From Paramecium tetraurelia (taxonomy: Eukaryota): DNA of 64,000 bases. The translations under genes and the position numbers were made by a program. The notes under the pieces are model-generated. The model made no database searches. It was given only the letters and a program-made list of their open reading frames with translations, and was not told where the DNA came from. Location of the stretch: NCBI GenBank assembly GCA_000165425.1, contig CT868207.1, positions 1-64,000 on the forward strand, written 5' to 3'. Positions 1 through 50,844 of the stretch are shown here, in pieces. Position 1 is the stretch's first letter, and every line of letters starts with the position of its first letter.

Positions 1-780
1 TGAAGAAGCTTTGTAAAATTATGATTCAGCAATTGAGAAAAATCCAGAAAATTCTGACTTATATTATAATAAAGGTACTATTAACTATTTTACATTTCTT
101 AGCTATTACATTAGATATAATGAACAGATTTGAAGAAGCTTTGTAAAATTATGATTCAGCAATTGAGAAAAATCCAGAAAATTCTGAATTTTATAAAGGC
201 AAAGGTACTATTAACTATTTTACATTTCTTAGCTATTACATTAGATCATATGAATAGATTTGAAGAAGCTTTGTAAAATTATGATTCAGCAATTGAGAAA
301 AATCCAGAAAATTCTGAATTTTATAAAGGCAAAGGTACTATTAACTATTTTACATTTCTTAGCTATTACATTAGATCATATGAATAGATTTGAAGAAGCT
401 TTGTAAAATTATGATTCAGCAATTGAGAAAAATCCAGAAAATTCTGAATTTTATAAAGGCAAAGGTACTATTAACTATTTTACATTTCTTAGCTATTACA
501 TTAGATCATATGAATAGATTTGAAGAAGCTTTGTAAAATTATGATTCAGCAATTGAGAAAAATCCTCAAAATTCTGACTTATATTATAATAAAGGTACTA
601 TTAACTATTTTATATTTCTTAGCTATTACATTAGATCATATGAATAGATTTGAAGAAGCTTTGTAAAATTATGATTCAGCGATTGAGAAAAATCCAGAAA
701 ATTCTGAAATATATAAAGAAAAAGGTATATTTAAGTATTTCTGATTTCCTAGCCATGACGTTATATATAATGAATAGATT
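1..780 (+). repeat. Near-perfect 130-bp tandem repeat (102-bp exon + 28-bp intron), ~6 copies
   Basis: tgaagaagctttgtaaaattatgattcagc recurs at 1, 131, 261, 391, 521, 651; intron gtactattaactattttacatttcttag identical in the first four copies. Confidence 0.95.
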
Positions 781-2937
781 TGAAGATGCTTTGGAACATT
801 TTAATTCTGCACTTTAGATAAATCCTGAAGAAACCAGATATTATATTGGCAAAGGTATAATTCAAATTGTATCAAATGTTTTAGCTAATGTTCTAAGTGA
901 GATGAATAGATTTATGGAAGCTTTGAGGAATTTTGATTTGGCCATTTCTAAAAATTCAGAAGATTCTACATATTACTTCTACAAAGGTAGAATACATCTT
1001 ATTTGATTTTTCAGCAATGACTCTATGCAAGATGATTAGATTAGAAGAAGCCTTACAGAATTATGATTTAGCAATTTCAAAAAATCCAGAAGAATCACAG
1101 TATTATAATTACAAAGGTTTAATTAATAACATATGATTACTTAGCGGTTACCCTAATTAAAATGAACAGATTAAGAGAAGCATTAGAAAACTTTGAAGTA
1201 GCAATTTAGAAAAATCCAGAAGATTCTAAGTGTTACGCAGGCAAAGGTAGATATATACTATTATGATTTTCTAGCTCAAACTCTACATAAAATGAAAAGA
1301 TTAGATGAAGCCTTAGAAAATTATAATTTAGCAATTTAGAAAAATCCAGAAGATTCTTAGTTTTATAATAATATAGGTACAATTGACAATTTTTGATTTT
1401 ATAGCTATTATTCTAAGTGAAATGAACAAATTAACAGAATCGCTAAAATATTTTGAATTAGCAGGATCAAAAAATACCAAAGATTTAATATATTATTTCA
1501 ACAAAGGTAATCCAATGTTTCTGATTTTACAGCTAATACTCTACTTAAAATGAACAAATTGGAAGAAGCTTTGTAAAATATGGAATTAGCAATTTAAGAA
1601 GATCCAGAAGATTCTATTTGCTATAATGGAAAAGGTATAATTAACAATGCTTGATTTCATAGCTGTTATTCTAAGTTAAATGAAAAAATTAGAAGAAGCT
1701 TTGGAATATTATGAATATGCAATTTAGAAAAGTCCTAATGATTCAAATTATTACTTTAATAAAGGTAGAATTAATTATGTAAGATTTTCTAGCTGATGTT
1801 CTACATTAATTGAAAAGATATGAAGAGGCTTTGAAATATTATGATTTAGCAATTAAACGAAATCCTGATGAACATTATTTCTTTAACAAAGGTAAAATTA
1901 ATAATGGATGATTTTTAAGCAAATACCCTAATCTAAATGAACAGATTGGAAGATGCTTTAGAAAATTTTAATTATGCAATTTAGAAAAATCCTGAAAGTT
2001 AGCAAAATTACATAAAAAAAGGTATAATTAATAATGGAAGATTTTTAGCTCATATTCTATTTATATTGAAAAGATATGAAGAAGCATTGAAATATTTTGA
2101 TTCTGCAATTTAGAAAAATCCTGATGATTCAAAGTATTACTGTGACAAAGGTATCATTCAAAAAGCTTAACTTTTTAGCTACGACTTTATATGAAATGAA
2201 GAGATTTTAAGAAGCTTTGAAAAATTTTGATTTAGCCATCGCCAAAAATCCAGAAGATTCAACGTTTTACTTCAGAAAAGGTTAACTATAAAAATTTATA
2301 ATTTTTTTCAGCAAATACTTTAATTGAAATGAAGAACTTTGAAGTAGCTTTGAAATATTTTAATTTAGCCATTTAGAGAAATCCTGATGATTCAAAGTAT
2401 TACTTTAACAAAGGTAATACCCATAATGGATGATTATTTAGCTACTACTTTAATTTAAATCAACAGATTTGAGGAGGCTTGGAAAAATTTTCATTATGCA
2501 ATATAAAAGAATCCTGATGATTCAATGATTTAAGATCTAATTCATAAAGTATGATTTTTAGCTCAAATTTTAATGAAGATGAATAAATTTTAAGAAGAAT
2601 TTAAAATTTAAATGAAAACCAATCCAATAATCCAAGCTTATACATTAAATTCCTTCAATCAATTTTAGGAGGCGTTAAAATTTGTCAATTTTAGAAATCG
2701 GAATTCTAATATGGCTGATGATAATGAACTAAAAGGTATATCACCATTTTTTAAGTTATAGCAAACATATTAAAATCCATGATTAAGATTATGGAAGTAC
2801 TTAAGTTTATTGATGAGTTAATTAATAGAATTGAGAGTTCTAAATACTATACAGAAAAAGGTAATTCTAACTTAATTAATAAAATTTCAGCTGGCATGTA
2901 AAACAAAAAGAACAATGAACCATAAAACTACAAATGA
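1..2937 (+). CDS. TPR-repeat protein (5' truncated by window), ~20 repeat units each on a 102-bp exon; 3' end degenerate (may stop at TGA 2552-2554)
   Basis: Spliced translation gives classic 34-aa TPRs, e.g. YYNKAITLDIMNRFEEALQNYDSAIEKNPENS; GT..AG introns at 75-102, 205-232, 335-362, 465-492, 595-622, 725-752, 855-884, 987-1014 etc.; last exon ends TGA 2935-2937. Confidence 0.9.
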
Positions 2938-4442
2938 AATTATAATGAAAAATAAATAATGAATTTATTAACCGAGTGATTATATTATTTTCAAATTAGC
3001 TTTCATCTATTATTTATGTGTCGTTGGAAAGAATCATCAGAATTATATAAAATATTCCAATAAATTTATCAAAATTAGGAATTTCTGAATAAAATATAGA
3101 GTTCATATATAAAAGTATTTTTAGGGAATATTTTAATTTGCTAATATTAATTAACGCTATAGTCAATGATTGAAATATATATGAAAAGCAATATAAATAT
3201 ATTCATCATTAGAAAATAACAGATATTTCATCTACTCGAATACTATAGCTTTATATGGTAAGGATTATCCCCAATTATATAATAAGAAGAATTGATGGCT
3301 TGGGCATAACTTTTACACTGTTTAATTATTATTCTTAGATAAATTCTCACTATTGGGTATTAACAGATAACATTCAAGAACAATCTGCACACTAAAACAG
3401 CCTAAAATATCCATCCCCAATGGGTTTTTAGAGTTTTGTATTAAAGCTCTTCTCTCAAAATTTCACTTTTGTTCTTTTTTTTTTAAGCTTTAGTCAAATT
3501 TGACATTCATTTTTAATTTCCCTAAGTTTAAATAGTTATTACTCATAATCCAAAATTGTGTAAAGTGTTTAAAAATCCGGTTCTCTATCATATTTTTGAC
3601 TCTCCAATTAACCTTTCAATCAGATCAAACCCTTCTTCATTTTCATACACTGTGTAAGAAAATATTATTAATCTTCTGTATTAGATAAACCTACATTGAT
3701 CTTGAAAAAAACGTTCTCTAGTAAACCTTTTCTTTTTGACGTAATTTTTCAAAAGTGTTCCAATTTAGGCTGAATTTGATTCGTAAATTTCGATCTAAAA
3801 TACTTGAAATAACTTACATGTAATTATGCGGTCGCTGTAGTCAGGTTAAAATTGTTCTCATTTCTTTACACTCTAAAAAAAGTGAGTACCATAATTTGAT
3901 TTTCTATTTTAGTCTATTTTCGTCTAACGTAAAATAAAAGATTTATAAGTAGTTAAGCTAGATAATCTTATTTTAGTTTATATTTCTATAGTTTTGCAAA
4001 AATTGTGTATTGACAACAGCTAATTCTATTATATTTCTAAAAATGACTATGTAAATTAAAGATATACAAAATTTTCAGATATTAATAAAGACTAATAATT
4101 GAAAATCTATTAATTTAAATAAAAAATTGTATTTATAGTATTTATCCTATTAGAGTTCATTTTATTAATTTAACAGTATTGACCAATATTTGATTCTCTA
4201 ATATAAGTAGTAAACTATCTAATTGTAGATGGGTATTTGGGTTTTAAAATCTAATTTTTAATTATTCCATTTCACTAAGTATAAACCAAAATTTCTATAT
4301 CTAATTTGCAAATAAAAAGAAAACGATATTTATTTTTATTCTAAATTTAATTGGAATCTATGTCCTCTAATTCAACGTCGTTATAGACAATTATAATTCA
4401 TTTATAAAATTTATATTTTTTATATTAGAGTAAAATTAAGTT

Positions 4443-6937
4443 ATGGATTTTGATTTAACAAGGTTTGAATTTATATCTTAAGAGCCTTATATTAAGCATA
4501 ATAATAGAACGTTTTTTAAGTTGAGAGAGAAAAAAAATTAATCAAAGGTAAAAATGTTGTTTTAAATTATTAGATATTTACATTCTTGATAATTGATGGG
4601 GTTAGCGAAGATAATTTAATGAAAAATCACATACATTGTTAAGGAAGAACTGAAGGAATAGTGAAAATAAAAGGACATAAAAACTTGGACTTTTAAGATT
4701 AATTTGGGATTAAAGTTTGCCGATAAGGATACCTCTTAGAGGAAATCTCATAAAGTCTTTTCTAAGTAGCATAAATCGAAAAAATAAATGAAATTATCAT
4801 CTCTTAACTATTGCTTGAAGTTGTAACAATTTTAGCTGATTTGCAAGAGGAAGAAATTGCATTACCATACATAACACCTGATCAAATAATGAGAATGAAG
4901 GATGGGAGATTTAAATTATTTGATGTTAATCATGCCATTAGTGTTATAGGAATGGACAGCAGTGTTTAAAGAGAAATTAAAAGTGATATTAATTACATGG
5001 ATCCTGATACATTTGCTGCTTCAATATCAGGTTAAATTTCAACTCTTCAAAATTATTTTAAATCAGTTGTTTATTCTTTTGGATTGATCATCTTGGAATT
5101 TAATTGCTAATAGTAAGAATTATATAATCAACATAGATTTTCAAATCACAGAAAAACAGAAGAACAAATTGCCTTCATGTTAGAACAATTAAGCATTATG
5201 AATCCAAATATTTCAGACTTAGTTAATTAGATGGTCTAATCTTCAAAAAATAAGAGACCTAATTGCAAAGAAGTGTATGACCATATGATAGAAATCAAAA
5301 ATGCAATAGAAAATAAAGTAGAAATTTAGATGGGATAAGAATTCAATTAGTAGCAAGATAATACTTTTAATTGGACTAAACAATTTACAGTTTCATAACC
5401 AATTAATGAAAATTTCTTTTCATAAGAATAATTTGGAGAAACAAATAAACAAATTTAACATCAATAGGTTTAACGTTTTTAGGATAGCTTGGCTTATAGT
5501 GATAATTGCTAAACAATGTAATTTGTTTAAAGTGGTATCAAATTACCAGAAAATCTGAGGAATTAAATAAAGCAATGGTAGGAACGACAATAACAAATTT
5601 AATCACAATAAGACTTTACTTTGAGATAGGATGAGCCTACTAGTAATCATTTAGAAAGCTCAGATGAAATAGAATAAAATTTTTATAATTAAATGACATT
5701 TGCATAATTGGTGGAGATACTCAACAGATTTCCATTGATTAAACAAATAAATGAGAATGATTTGATGATAAATGAGTAATAGTTAATTTATATCTAGCGA
5801 ATACAATATAGATGAGCAATAAAATATATTTAGATGCACCTATCAAAATTAAGAGAAGGTGGTTAAGATATATCGAAACAAACCAGCTTCTCATATCTTC
5901 TAATTACTCAACAACATCAATCACATTTAAAAATTAAAAATTTACGGTTTATGTATCTACGAAGGATATTATTTGTAAGAATCTGAAAATGGATCTTGTT
6001 TAGGAACTCTTTATCTTATAACACAATAAATGAACTGTGATTTAGAAAGAGCCTTGGCTATTCCATAAATACACTAAAAAAAATAGAAAGAATAAGTAAT
6101 TTTGAACATATCTCTATTTCTCAAAGCATATAATGAACACTTTACTCATGGAAATCTGAAACCTTCAAATATTTTATTAGGTAAGTTATTTATTAAGAAG
6201 TAGATAATTCATTGAACATTTATGTTACAGATTATGGCTTAAGTGAAGTAAAAGGAGAATTAGATGATCAGCTCTATAGTAGTAAACCATCTTGTGTTTA
6301 TTCCCCTCCAGAAAAAACATTAAGGAACACATTATCTAACACATCAGATGTTTGGAGTTTTGGAATCATAATTAGTGATATTCTTACAGGATAAAAAATG
6401 AACAACACTATCATCTAAAAATTAGGAATGAAGGACCATACTTATCAAGGGCACTTATCAGTAGATAAATTAGATTTTTTTCCTGCAACTGAATAAAACA
6501 ATAAAATGAAAAATCTTCTCAAATAAATGACACTGTATAATTGTGAAAAGAGAATTACAAGTGATTTGGTCCACAATGAACTTAAAATTATCTTCCAATG
6601 GACAGATTAATCAAATTTCAAGAGCAATAATACCAATAATTTTTACCCTGGAAACAAAATTTCATAATCAAATATATAGAAAAATAATTATGTATAACCT
6701 TAGCCATAGCTATATTCTATAAATTAAAATTAATAAAGCCCATCCTTTACTAGTATTAAATAGACTATTTAATCTAATCAAAATAAAATCCACAGAAACA
6801 CTGGATTATCCCATAAAATTCCACCTCCCTCTGCTAGGTAATAAAGATTTGATAAATCTGGTGGTGAGTTTTACATATAAGGAAAGACAGTTAATTTATA
6901 ACCACAAGATGGAGGAAAACAAAAAAAATCATAATGA
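4443..6937 (+). CDS. Protein with two kinase-like domains (probable tandem pseudokinase) and Q/N-rich linker and tail
   Basis: ATG 4443; domain 1 LPYITPDQI..KLFDV..YMDPD..VVYSFGLIILE; domain 2 HGNLKPSNILL..DYGLSE..YSPPE..SDVWSFG; TGA 6935-6937. Confidence 0.8.
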
Positions 6938-20904: not shown

Positions 20905-23336
20905 TCATTTTGATATTTGCAATTTATTATATTAATCCTCTAACTATGCCAAGAGTCTTTCGAAATCGTTAACTCTGAATGAAGTAAAAAATCTGGATTT
21001 AGTTGTAATTATTGGAACTCCTCTAGGATTTTATTATCTCTCTTGATCCAACACTTTAAGATTCATTTTAGTTGCTATTTGATTAAACAATTCAAATACT
21101 TTCTAATTTTTAAGTATACTTTGAATAATATGCTCTTTCCAATTCGTCAAGTTGAATTGACTACCTTTTTTACTGTTACTATTGATTTGCTTGATGACTG
21201 GGATTTATTTAATATTATGATACATTTTCTTAAACTAATTAAACCTATACATGTAATGGACCCTATGACTTATTTTATTGAATCTACTATTATTATGATA
21301 TTAATTATTATTGTTGTATTTATTACTATTAATAATTTAATTGCTATTCTGATCCCTTTTATTCAAATCGTCTAGAAGGAGATTTATTATTGATATAAGC
21401 TTTTGGACTTTAAGGGATATCTTCATTGCCATCAAACTCTTGATCATCCATTGTGTTCCCTGCATTCCAACAATTCTTTACTTTTGATTTAACAGTTTTA
21501 GGATCTACTTTTGGATTTTTCAATGGAATCTATTTAGATTTTCTTTTTAAGAAATTCTTTGGTTTTTGATCAGAAGCATCATCTTTAGGAGAGCATTCTC
21601 CAATTTATTCAACCGATGGTCCTTACTTTTCAGGAGTTGCACTTAAATTAAGTTTGCTAGTTTTTGGTGATTGTTATCTTTCTTAAAGATTTTGTTATGA
21701 TAAAACCTGCTTTTTTTAAGGAATTTATTGTTATTGTTATGGTTAAACTTCTTATTATTCTTCAACTTCTTCAACATCAACTTTTTCAAGTTGTTATTAT
21801 TCTTCCTATTTCTTCTTTGCTTCCTGAATTGCTTTTCTCGGATCATATTTTGTTCTTTTTTTAAGATTTTCTAAGAGTTTAGGATCTTTCTTTTTTGGTT
21901 TAGGTTTTTCTTAATCATTAAAATCATCATTCTACATCTTTCCTAAGGGGGGTTCATTTTCATTTTAATTGTCATAAAGATTTTATTATCTATCCTCAAC
22001 TTACTTGTTCTCCTTTTTTTATTCAGCTTTTTTTCTAGGAGGTTATTTCTATTTCTTTGGAGGAGCATCTTCTTCAAAATTACCATATGTCCCCTTTCCA
22101 CTAATAGGTATTTCATCAGCAGGTATATCATACTATCCCTTTCCACCTAATGGTCTTTCATCTTCAAATTATTGATATTTTCCTTTGCTTGCAATTGGTC
22201 TGTCATTATCTAAATATTATTCTTGTTCGAATTAATATGTATCTTTGCCTTTTTTTATAGGTCTCTCATCCTCATATTAATTATATGCGCCTTTATTTTT
22301 AGGTGCAACAGGTCTATCATCTTCATAATATGCGTTTGCTTTTTTTGTTGCAATAGGCCTTTCATCCTCATAATTATTATAAGCATTATTATTTTTTGCA
22401 TTTATTGGCCTATCATCTTCATAATTATTATAAGTATTAGCATTTTTGGCGTTTATTGGCCTTTCATCGTCAAAATTATTATAAGTATTTGTATTTTTTG
22501 CATTTATTGGTCTTTCATCCTCTATATAATTATATTGACCCTTTCCACAAATTGGTCTATCATCATCATATGAATTTTTTTCAGGTGTATACCTTTCTTG
22601 CATTGCAAAATTTGCTTAATTTTTCGATTTAATAGGTCTTTCATCTTATTAATACTCTATTCTTTATGATTGTTGGTATTATCCTGATAAATTAGAGTTG
22701 GAATGACTTTAATCACGAATTTAAGAATTCTATTACATATATTCTTAATAATATGGTTATGGCTATTCAGAATATTCATTTTGAATTAGTTAATCATAAT
22801 ATTGTTGTTCAACTTTGTTTGCTTAAAGGGGTTATTTAGAGGGTTTCTTGTAATAATTTTATTAGAATTTTTAGTCTTAACTAACAAATTCATTATCCAA
22901 ATATTGATTAGGAACAAATTATCTTTAAGAACTTTTAACTCTTTTAAGTTTTTTGTAGAATTAACCATTCTGTAAATAGTTTTCAATCATTCTTATTAAT
23001 CTTATCTTTTTTTGTCTTATTTATGGATTTCCATATGCTTAATATAATTCTTGAGATATATACTTCCATCATCAGTTTCGATAATATTTTATCTCAACTT
23101 AGCCACATCAGGGACTTTCAGAATTTATCTTGTCCTATATCCTAATAAAATAGAATTGATAACAAACCTTGAATGAATCCATTTAAAATAGCTTTGAATC
23201 TTCTGATATGCATCATGATGATTTTGTGCCTCTATCTCTAAATGTACCCCTTCACATTCTTTTAAATTAATGTAGCACAAAAGTTAAGGAATCTAACTAT
23301 CATTTCCTGATTCTTTTATGAGTCTTATCGTTACAT
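20905..23336 (-). CDS. IQ-motif protein with DERPI tandem repeats and low-complexity Q/N regions
   Basis: ATLIQKNVKGYIQRQR and FIQGYRTRQ IQ-like motifs at N-terminus; ~11 D[ED]RP[IVL] repeats; ends LQISK-TGA. Confidence 0.75.
22100..22650 (-). repeat. Coding repeat of ~14-16 aa (48-bp core period), consensus YNNYEDERPINAKNAN
   Basis: DDRPICGK, DERPINAK x2, DDRPINAK, DERPIATK, DDRPVAPK, DERPIKK, NDRPIASK, DERPLGGK. Confidence 0.85.
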
Positions 23337-30251: not shown

Positions 30252-31872
30252 TCAGCGACTATTTAGATACCATTTTTTCTAATTTGATAGAAATGCATTA
30301 TTATTAACCAACTCATGGAGAAATTGCAAACGTAATTCGGATATCTGTTTAGGTCCTACCTCGAAATTAATCTCAGTAACGCTAATATCAGTATGTTTAA
30401 TCAACTGCATTGAATTGAATAAAGTATAAATTGAACAATCATATGCATTTCTTTATTGAGGCACTTTTACTACCTTTTATTTAGGTTCCAATTCTAAGAA
30501 GTTTGCAGATTATTCAATAAAACAAGATTAGTTCCTCAATTGACGTTACTTTTCTCTGAATAATGAATATATTTTGCTTATTTATCGGCCTACAATTTCA
30601 TCACTCCAAGTAGAATTCATTGAATTTAAAATATAAATGGTATCTTCTTCGATACAAATGCAAATAAAATGACATCTATCAACATTTATCAAAATTACTA
30701 ATCTCAAACTTTTATTTTCTTAACAATTTATAGGATTAAAAAATTGATTAGCATACTCCAAATTAATTTAGTCAACTTGAGTGATCTAGCTGGAAAATAT
30801 ATCTTAAGCTTATCTTGTATCCATGAGAACAATTTAGTATTTTGCTTCCCTATGATTAATTAGTTATTATTGTGGATAATATTGTCTAATAAAATAATCA
30901 ACTAAAATCTGGTTTAACCATCCACCATCAAATAGAGCCTTAGCAAAGTTAGGAGTAATATGAAATTCATCTGAAACTACAATTGGTTTAATATTTCTAA
31001 AATCGGATCCGTCTCCAGGACAGGACTGAACCTTCTACTTCTAAATATCAAATTCAGAATATGTAAATTTAGCACTTGGAATTGTGTAAAAAAATTAATC
31101 ACATTCAAATAGCATTTATCTTTCCTAATTACTTAGTTTACCTTATCCTCTAGGGATTAGATATACAGGATCTATGAAACCAAGAAATTTGTCCCAAATT
31201 TTACTATCATTTGGTCTTTTTGCGATAAATGATTACTCTTATTGCATTTTTCCTGTAAATTTCAACATACTCTGATTAATCACATCGGAACATTAATTCC
31301 AGAAATTTTGAATTAAGTATTCATTTTCATTATAATAACAATGAGAAGAATTTTTGAGTAACATGGTATTTTGAGAATTAGTAATTGAGCGAATTCTAAA
31401 TATTTGATATTAAATACATGTTATGGTTGGGAAGCAACAATAATGTAGAATATTCAGTTGATCCAATTTTATGAATTACCTTATGAATAGGTTTTTAAGT
31501 AAACCACATTTTTTTAAAAGCAGCAATCCACTTTTCTAATTAATCCCAATCCTTCTCTTCAAATGTAATTCGTTTAGATTAATAGTATATTCCAAATAGA
31601 TATCTCATAAACTCAATTACTTTTTTTTCTGTGAGCTCTCTTTATTTGTTTTACAAAAAACACGTATTCATTATTTAAATGGAATGATTTGTATCTTTTT
31701 TGATTAATACTTATGAAAGTTCAATTTTATGATAAAAATCATAATACAATATTAGTGTTCGAAGTAATTACGCAAATTAGTTATTTCCTACCTAAGTATT
31801 AAGTAGTAGCTATAAACATTCTTTGTGCTCTATATTTTTGATTTATTGAGTGAAGAGCTAATATGCATCCAT
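30252..31872 (-). CDS. Ulp1/SENP-like cysteine peptidase (clan CE, C48-like)
   Basis: GWLNQILVDYF, INVDRCHFICICI (His), YILNSM, VPQQRNAYDCSIY (oxyanion Gln, catalytic Cys), ISELRLQF. Confidence 0.8.
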
Positions 31873-33085: not shown

Positions 33086-34302
33086 ATGAATTAATTGAAA
33101 GACACAATATAGGAATATATGAATAGAAATGTTAAGCCAATTTTTGATTAACTATTAGCTTAATTACTGCTTGCTAGACCTGATGATATTGTGAGTTGGT
33201 GTATTAATTGGCTTTAACAATTATGTAAGGAATATATGATTATAAGAATCGACAAACTCTAAAGCAAAACACTCGGAAGCATAGCATTATCAAAGTGAAG
33301 AAGAAGAAGATGAAGAGGATGAGGTTTTACCTATTTAAAAAGAAACAAAAAAAACAAATAGAACAGGAGTTTCAGCTGAAGTCTATGGGTAATTTAACAA
33401 AAAAGAGGATTTCAAACCAAGAGTCATTGAAAAAAATAAAGATTAAATTGACAGAATTAGGAAAAAGATTTTAAATTCATTCCTATTTTAAGCATTAGAT
33501 GAATAAAATCTACATACCGTTATTGATGCAATGGAAGAGAAAAAATTTTAGTAATTATTTTTATTTTTCACAATATTTTAGACCTGGAGATTATGTCATT
33601 CGTCAAGGAGATGATGGAAATGAATTGTATGTGATTGACGAAGGTGAATTAGAATGTACCAAGAAATTCCCCAATCAACCTCAAGAAAAGTTCTTAAAAA
33701 AGTATTTGCCTGGAGAATCCTTTGGTGAACTTGCTTTATTGTATAATGTACCTCGTGCTGCAACTATTAAAGCAATTTAACCTGTAATAGCTTTTGCTTT
33801 AGATAGAGCAACTTTTAACAATATTGTGAAAGATGCAGCTATCAGAAAGAGAGAATAGATGGAATAGATCTTAAACAAAATTGAACTCTTGTAGTCAATG
33901 GACACTTATGAGAGATTATAGTTCTGTGATGTTTTGAGAGAAGTCAAATATCTAAGAGGAGATAAAGTTATTAAATAGGTTTTAATAATATTTTAATTTC
34001 TTAGGGAGAATAAGGAGATACAATTTACTTAATTGCTGAAGGAGAATTGGAAGCATACAAAGATGGTTAGCAAGAAAAGGTTTACGCCTACAAATCAGGT
34101 GATTATTTTGGAGAATTAGCATTATTAAAAAACACACCTAGATAAGCAACCATTATAGCAATAGTAATTATTTAGTTATACATTTTTATAGTCAGATTGT
34201 ACTTTATACTATTGTGATTTTAAATCATTTACAAGAATGATGGGTCCATTGGAGTAAATTCTAAAAAGAAATGTTGAAAGATACGAGCATTTTCTTAAAT
34301 GA
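33086..34302 (+). CDS. PKAR: cAMP-dependent protein kinase regulatory subunit
   Basis: N-terminal dimerisation/docking-like helix pair, RTGVSAEVYG inhibitor site, two cNMP domains (FGELALLYNVPRAATI; FGELALLKNTPRQATI). Confidence 0.95.

Positions 34303-49351: not shown

Positions 49352-50844
<1,493 letters not shown>

Follow-up and report, generated by a model that had tools for sequence, protein, structure and literature searches.

How does a gene come to be built of exons of one length, each carrying one repeat's worth of protein and all separated by introns at the same site, and does such a structure serve a purpose of its own? The question is raised by the beginning of a 64,000-nucleotide stretch of Paramecium tetraurelia DNA (assembly GCA_000165425.1, contig CT868207.1, positions 1 to 64,000; hereafter the window), where a plus-strand array of tetratricopeptide repeat (TPR) exons alternates with mini-introns. 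In an initial annotation of this DNA the array was suggested to be a modular system for variable recognition, in which units can be added, lost, swapped or skipped without a frameshift. We think it likely that the array forms the 3' portion of a macronuclear gene of Paramecium, one that encodes a TPR solenoid of at least 19 canonical 34-residue repeats and has grown by tandem duplication of exon plus intron. This reading is carried by what is observed of the anatomy of the array, its TPR identity, its recent amplification and its relatives, which have the intron at the same position.

Anatomy of the array

With Tandem Repeats Finder, window positions 1-2525 show a period of 130 bp (19.4 copies, 73% matches), and a second 130-bp call is made over 1-829 (6.4 copies, 92% matches, no indels). 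Within the regular array (75-2441, plus strand) 19 GT..AG intervals found by script alternate with 18 complete exons (103-2413). The intervals are 28 nt long in 15 of the 19 cases, with one each of 26, 27, 30 and 31 nt. Their donors read GTA in 17 and GTT in two, and their acceptors TAG in 15, CAG in three and AAG in one. On the exon side the bases before the donor are AAAG at 18 sites and ATAG at the remaining one, and the base after the acceptor is C at all 19 (CT in 14).

Removal of the introns leaves a partial exon followed by the 18 complete exons, 17 of which are 102 nt long and encode 34 residues; the single deviating exon (1793-1891, plus strand) has 99 nt and encodes 33. The partial exon, exon 0 (1-74, plus strand), has a 24-residue in-frame translation that covers TPR positions 18-34 and, from the repeat after it, positions 1-7. 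As the window opens inside the array, all repeat counts given here are minima. Under the ciliate code (table 6, in which TAA and TAG encode Gln) the spliced frame runs without a stop from base 2 as far as an in-frame TGA at 2552-2554, a length of about 660 spliced codons. It is only under this code that the long frames of the window are open; the GC content of the window is 0.23-0.31. Together with the mini-introns and the TIP49 gene described below, these traits point to a Paramecium macronuclear genome.

Each of the 19 introns is in phase 1 and interrupts the TPR motif at its codon 8. The initial annotation had described a run of 102-nt exons (one of about 99 nt) with phase-1 mini-introns of like position, each exon being a symmetric, frame-preserving unit with its intron in the middle of helix A; these points hold, with 18 complete exons, introns of 26-31 nt and 1-1 phase. 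The extent of 1-2890 given there is right only in part: the regular array is real and ends at 2441, where it is followed by a last unit that has no donor and by a decayed tail. No such units were found in the rest of the 64 kb (about 61 kb), none of the 26 profile matches lying beyond 2900.

The array also contains an antisense frame of 390 codons (956-2128, minus strand) with a low-complexity translation. This frame is most likely a by-product of the repeat combined with a code that has a single stop codon.

The repeat and its variable positions

Single exons match the Pfam profiles TPR_1, TPR_2, TPR_8 and TPR_11, with scores of 16-25 bits (E 1e-5 to 1e-2) that come from 33 residues covering profile positions 9-34 and lie below the gathering cut-offs of 25.7-27.8 bits; for TPR_1 the matched positions are 9-34 or 12-34, at E 3e-5 to 1e-2. 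A profile of the exons in turn matches TPR proteins of solved structure in the PDB, namely HOP, CDC27, SGTA and PEX5. Because exon residues 1-26 align to Pfam positions 9-34, the intron is placed in helix A, at codon 8, and an exon spans TPR position 8 of one repeat through position 7 of the next. Since the intron splits helix A, each of these binding helices is encoded by two neighbouring exons.

The TPR signature occupies positions 4, 8, 11, 20, 24, 27 and 32. In the 13 non-recent 34-residue units, Y4, A8, L11 and A27 are each present without exception, A20 and F/Y24 each in 12 and P32 in 11. The six most variable columns of the same 13 units are TPR positions 12, 2, 9, 6, 5 and 13, and these are the six positions (2, 5, 6, 9, 12 and 13) used by HOP in contacts with its ligands (PMC1261162). 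The chance of drawing exactly those six columns is 1 in 1,344,904 (C(34,6), calculated by hand). Variability on the concave face is described in that source as a property of TPRs in general, so that the pattern speaks for a TPR scaffold that works and not specifically for an immune-like receptor. Judged from its repeats, the product would be a long TPR-solenoid protein with its N-terminus encoded upstream of the window, and would most likely serve as a protein-protein interaction scaffold whose specificity residues vary from repeat to repeat.

Probable growth by tandem duplication

Exons 1-5 are 87-100% identical to one another, exons 2 and 3 being fully identical. The introns after exons 1, 2 and 3 are likewise identical, and that after exon 4 differs at one of 28 bases. 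As the recent introns are identical or nearly so, like the exons, the unit of duplication is a 130-bp DNA segment of exon plus intron. The recently amplified block comprises units 0-5 (1-829, plus strand), which bears out the suggestion that units can be added. Between older units identity falls to 57-79%; their introns, at 63%, have diverged to the same degree as third codon positions, at 62%, against 71% for whole exons. We infer that tandem duplication of this 130-bp unit (an exon and an intron of about 28 nt) gave rise to the array and is still enlarging it, which could take place by unequal recombination or by replication slippage.

The uniform exon length, the common intron position and phase 1 are explained by the fact that exon and intron are duplicated as one unit. 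Symmetric phase is automatic under such duplication and is thus no evidence of cassette use. The structure is in this sense a fairly ordinary product of tandem DNA duplication and of known processes. It also means that tandem duplication of exon plus intron is by itself enough to raise a gene's intron number, and the array shows intron gain of this kind where introns are near their minimum size.

The recognition proposal takes the same regularity as a functional design, with symmetric TPR cassettes being added, lost, swapped and skipped to make immune-like or symbiont-sensing receptors. We regard this as very unlikely. It can draw on the 1-1 symmetry of all exons, by which gain or loss of a unit keeps the frame, on the recent gain of units, and on the positions at which recent copies differ (TPR 2, 3, 5, 6, 13 and 33), most of which are on the concave face. 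Against it stands the general variability of that face among TPRs (PMC1261162), and also the ratio of non-synonymous to synonymous substitution rates (dN/dS), which lies between 0.31 and 0.75 in nine informative recent pairs, while the median of 66 old pairs is 0.41, these being crude and noisy pairwise values from our own Nei-Gojobori script applied to whole 102-nt units. With values below 1 in all nine recent pairs and in the median of the old ones, the units appear to be under purifying selection, the youngest copies included, and this pairwise whole-unit comparison gave no sign of diversifying selection on the repeat exons. Nor is a receptor or signalling domain visible, the N-terminus lying outside the window.

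Relatives and the gene family

Proteins were searched with two contiguous two-exon translations reading through multiple-of-three introns. Among 270 candidates, five of ten matches were TPR proteins of P. tetraurelia or P. octaurelia with the unit seen in the window, and the homologues P0001-P0003 carry PF00515, PF07719 and PF13181. The deposited sequences of P0001 (P. tetraurelia) and P0003 (P. octaurelia) have an intron read through exactly at the Lys7|Ala8 junction, and the intron position is therefore common to these relatives. A protein search with a single recent exon plus its flanks (44 residues) returned five candidates, none of them significant.

Public contigs were compared with window positions 700-3700, and all contig observations reported here are among the pieces, loose ends and joints displayed. 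One DNA run (X16) matched the locus without differences over 762-3700 and contained 114 further pieces at 90-95%; three of its loose ends or inserts read as paralogues with an intron at the junction used in the window. In RNA-labelled runs at least six paralogue junctions lacked the intron, and in one 797-nt contig from an RNA run exon 10 found three matches, spaced 104 and 202 nt from each other. The gene in the window thus belongs to a family and is no singleton, as relatives with the same unit and the same intron position attest; the initial annotation had made its proposal depend on this.

Nearest-neighbour comparison of the units shows clonal clusters within each gene (window units 1-5, and four units of P0001), and old units are roughly equidistant, at 55-70%, across genes and species. 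This comparison revealed no sign of exchange of units between genes, which tells against the swapping that was envisaged and so against a recognition system assembled in this way.

The gene models of P0001 and P0003 read through the mini-introns of their arrays, with 9-residue insertions or frame-shifted stretches as the outcome. Models of this kind imply that public protein sets under-represent and garble the TPR-array family. Metagenome matches to a degenerate 23-base exon motif (nine loci, GC 0.36-0.47) were discarded as chance, with no such TPR array present: seven of the nine had no unit match, and the other two had one and three short partial profile matches of at most 17 bits.

Introns and splicing

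Seventeen of the 19 introns are not multiples of three, and retention of any of them leads to a stop within 20 codons; eight of the 17 have an in-frame TGA at intron bases 18-20. Paramecium introns have been described as leaning on nonsense-mediated decay (PMC8997360), a view that these stops fit. The remaining two introns are stopless multiples of three. One of 30 nt (855-884, plus strand) would add 10 residues in frame if retained and is spanned by an open reading frame at 644-1006, and one of 27 nt (2022-2048, plus strand) would add nine and is spanned by an open reading frame at 1835-2194. Stopless introns of this length class are reported to be counter-selected in Paramecium (PMC8997360).

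Retention of the intron at 855-884 or at 2022-2048 would lengthen helix A without triggering nonsense-mediated decay.

The intervals would be ordinary Paramecium mini-introns, removed by intron definition. Tiny introns are recognised in this way, and the passages cited of PMC8997360 state that exon skipping has not been reported in P. tetraurelia; the suggested skipping of units finds no support in them. That the intervals are internal eliminated sequences (IESs), the DNA segments removed from the germline sequence, and not introns is rejected on the grounds of their GT..AG ends in 19 of 19 cases and their absence from the RNA contigs of paralogues.

Nearly all pieces of the three RNA-labelled runs are 90-95% alike to the window and come from paralogues. 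No RNA-run cover was seen in the bins 902-1002, 1407-1507 and 2417-2921, which says nothing on expression of the gene in the window. A word index credits the three RNA runs with 0.41-0.49 of the words, a figure that is not reconciled with the displayed pieces.

The gene's 3' end

The last recognisable unit (2442-2554, plus strand) has no GT donor, is shorter by 10 nt than the unit before it and contains the TGA at 2552-2554, which is in frame. GT is absent throughout 2511-2548. This TGA is likely to be the present stop codon. It is followed by a degenerate tail (2555-2937, plus strand) of about three decayed TPR-like units, across which the frame remains open for 127 more codons, with only two intron-like intervals (2736-2761 and 2861-2890) and the next TGA at 2935-2937. 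From its sequence the tail may be either a 3' untranslated region or relic, or the end of the coding sequence should the TGA at 2552 be passed over. One contig of the DNA run X16 matches 2073-3054 with zero differing letters and, being identical across this interval, indicates that the region of the last unit and its TGA contains no local assembly error in that data set. The gene might be the published example at the start of P. tetraurelia scaffold 150, for which a supplementary row (PMC6771405) puts a 30-bp somatic deletion at 2471-2500; neither TA bounds nor microhomology were found at 2471-2500 in the window.

The array could in principle be decaying, a recently truncated or silent copy whose regularity is inherited from a functional ancestor. 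The TGA falls in a shortened unit without a donor site, the decayed units after it still keep frame and intron-like intervals, and the two stopless multiple-of-three introns belong to the class that is reported to be counter-selected in Paramecium (PMC8997360), all of which would be in keeping with decay. A copy on its way out would on the other hand hardly be expected to retain about 660 open spliced codons before the TGA, 19 intact donor-acceptor pairs out of 19, exact exon lengths and dN/dS below 1 even among its youngest units. Moreover, divergent terminal repeats are common in solenoid proteins. We therefore think decay of the array very unlikely.

Several points nevertheless weigh against an intact solenoid gene grown by tandem duplication, the reading that we prefer. 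The in-frame TGA at 2552-2554 and the decayed units after it make a truncation of the 3' end possible. The N-terminal part lies outside the window, and an attached signalling domain is not visible. None of the RNA contigs displayed matches the gene's own exons at 99% or more, and its splicing and expression are argued by analogy with paralogues. The exon length of 102 nt in relatives is deduced from 34-residue spacing in their proteins together with published IES spacing, and the dN/dS values have the roughness described above.

A germline lead: possible IESs beside the introns

The window is macronuclear-type sequence, in which IESs are not visible and only their footprints may be sought. One such footprint may be the TA at exon bases 10-11, which is invariant in 19 of 19 units (window 112, 242, 372 and so on to 2451). 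It forms the second and third bases of the Leu-11 codon, which is CTA in 10 units and TTA in nine and never ends in G. Leu codons elsewhere in the array have TA as their last two bases in 19 of 39 cases (Fisher p = 6e-5, a significance that is overstated as the units are related), and across seven long frames of the window 11% of Leu codons are CTA. Just one further TA is nearly invariant, that at exon base 90 (18 of 19), and there the Tyr-4 codon dictates it.

An example of such a candidate germline IES junction is the TA at 762-763 (plus strand; exon bases 10-11), where contigs of X16 break. One contig departs after 764, and its loose end of 29 bases comes back to sequence like that of the window; another starts at 762, preceded by 24 unaligned bases. 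The breaks at 762-764 are compatible with a TA-bounded insertion of 24-28 bp, that is with an IES-retaining form, or with a paralogue. As a lead, these signs taken with the published IES positions would place a single germline IES in every exon, some 10 bases 3' of each intron.

TPR-motif genes are reported to be the most IES-dense genes of P. tetraurelia, with a total of 1135 IESs and a density of up to 10 per kb (Vitali et al., 2019; PMC6771405), and the TPR family has in this respect already been noticed in print. Among the rows listed in Table S2 of that paper, genes on scaffolds 100, 104 and 119 have IESs of 26-29 bp every 122-131 bp, a spacing that agrees with the 130-bp period of the array and is found in the same genus and the same kind of gene. 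This spacing and the paralogue contigs would be indirect support for an exon length of this kind in many genes. IESs present in 3-6 copies have been explained by TPR or WD40 repeats having expanded (Arnaiz et al., 2012; PMC3464196). Both papers treat DNA elimination; 102-nt exons, a uniform intron phase and the parallel with Tetrahymena are not described in the passages cited. Table S2 also contains a 130-bp 'IES' in a TPR gene on scaffold 100, with a retention of 0.37-0.56 in four temperature samples (PMC6771405). As 130 bp is exactly one unit of exon plus intron, it would seem that only about half of that gene's somatic copies contain the whole TPR unit.

These observations lead to a bolder model, which we put forward as quite unlikely. 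Germline TPR units might be interrupted twice within about 12 bases, by an IES at the TA of Leu-11 and by the intron in codon 8, each of about 27 nt and both copied together, and in-frame excision of a unit's length might produce somatic variants in repeat number. With an equivalent TA every 130 bp, exactly one unit could be taken out in frame by the excision machinery. The leads for such a germline origin are the invariant TA, the X16 breaks at 762-764 and the published 130-bp 'IES'. If the model is true, macronuclei would have differing repeat numbers and TPR proteins a developmentally generated repertoire of lengths. If an IES lies beside every intron, the array would be a compact natural test bed for how DNA elimination, splicing and nonsense-mediated decay police a repetitive frame, and the family could show whether excision of unit length makes somatic variants in protein length.

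A whole unit that can be variably present in somatic DNA, as the retention of the 130-bp 'IES' indicates (PMC6771405), would also suit a recognition system. The same Table S2 contains two points to the contrary. In one P. tetraurelia TPR gene, 10 of 12 IESs are positionally matched in the whole-genome-duplication partner, and their positions are thus in register, which does not agree with rapid turnover of units as a general feature. The TPR-array genes listed there also have a vegetative expression of 0.11-0.92 transcripts per million.

Comparison with known exon arrays

The initial annotation had pointed to the leucine-rich repeat (LRR) genes of Tetrahymena as a precedent, and accurately so. 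The group II and III LRR genes of that ciliate have exons of exactly 90 bp with phase-2 introns and have expanded in clonal waves (Xiong et al., 2019; PMC6564038). Like the array in the window, these genes give each repeat its own exon, keep exon length and intron phase constant, show clonal expansion of exon and intron that is visible in the nucleotides, and belong to a multi-gene family. The two differ in the repeat (TPR of 102 nt versus LRR of 90 nt), in the phase (1 versus 2) and in intron length, which is 26-31 nt here and about 56 nt or longer in Tetrahymena. The LRR genes of P. tetraurelia itself have no 90-bp exon peak and few introns, and TPR exon arrays are not described in the passages cited of that source (PMC6564038). 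In these terms the array is a Paramecium counterpart to the LRR exon arrays of Tetrahymena.

One TPR per exon is also found in the NB-ARC-TPR genes of Ectocarpus (Zambounis et al., 2012; PMC3341825; PMC11378527). There too each TPR has a separate exon in a tandem series, growth is read as exon duplication and the coding strand contains inactivated units; the exons listed include 21 that are 102 nt long (PMC3341825). The functional exons of Ectocarpus are unlike those of the window in being 126 nt long (a 34-residue TPR plus a linker), the 102-nt ones being regarded as truncated. Their introns are long and contain dead exons, and an NB-ARC domain is attached; in our case the N-terminus lies outside view. 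Signs of positive selection and alternative splicing are reported for Ectocarpus; for the array in the window the pairwise dN/dS values gave no sign of such selection, and exon skipping has not been reported in P. tetraurelia (PMC8997360).

The arrays of both Ectocarpus (PMC3341825; PMC11378527) and Tetrahymena (PMC6564038) have been interpreted as recognition systems, and these precedents are a further argument for reading the TPR exons as a recognition repertoire of exchangeable cassettes. The data presented here offer that reading no positive support and contain several points against it, and it is not supported. We found no description of 102-nt TPR exons or of periodic introns in Paramecium in the full-text literature, a search in which subscription journals were mostly outside coverage.

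Other features of the window

A second coding tandem repeat (22272-22534, periods of 45 and 51 nt) lies in a minus-strand frame of 658 codons (21092-23068) that has no Pfam match; it consists of about ten copies of an acidic motif of about 17 residues that contains D/E-R-P-I. Neighbouring frames have Pfam matches to a protein kinase (4469-5815), a Ulp1-type peptidase (30252-31604, minus strand), a cyclic-nucleotide-binding domain (33187-34302) and TIP49/RuvB-like (49396-50526). None of these four is visibly linked to the TPR gene. In tblastn against the window, 16 TIP49 proteins (the P. primaurelia representative of an 18-member P. aurelia-complex cluster, 14 other members of it, four of these from P. 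tetraurelia, and one P. bursaria protein) reached no more than 94% identity in stretches free of introns. The TIP49 gene is 94% identical to a cluster of the P. aurelia complex and 89% identical to P. bursaria.

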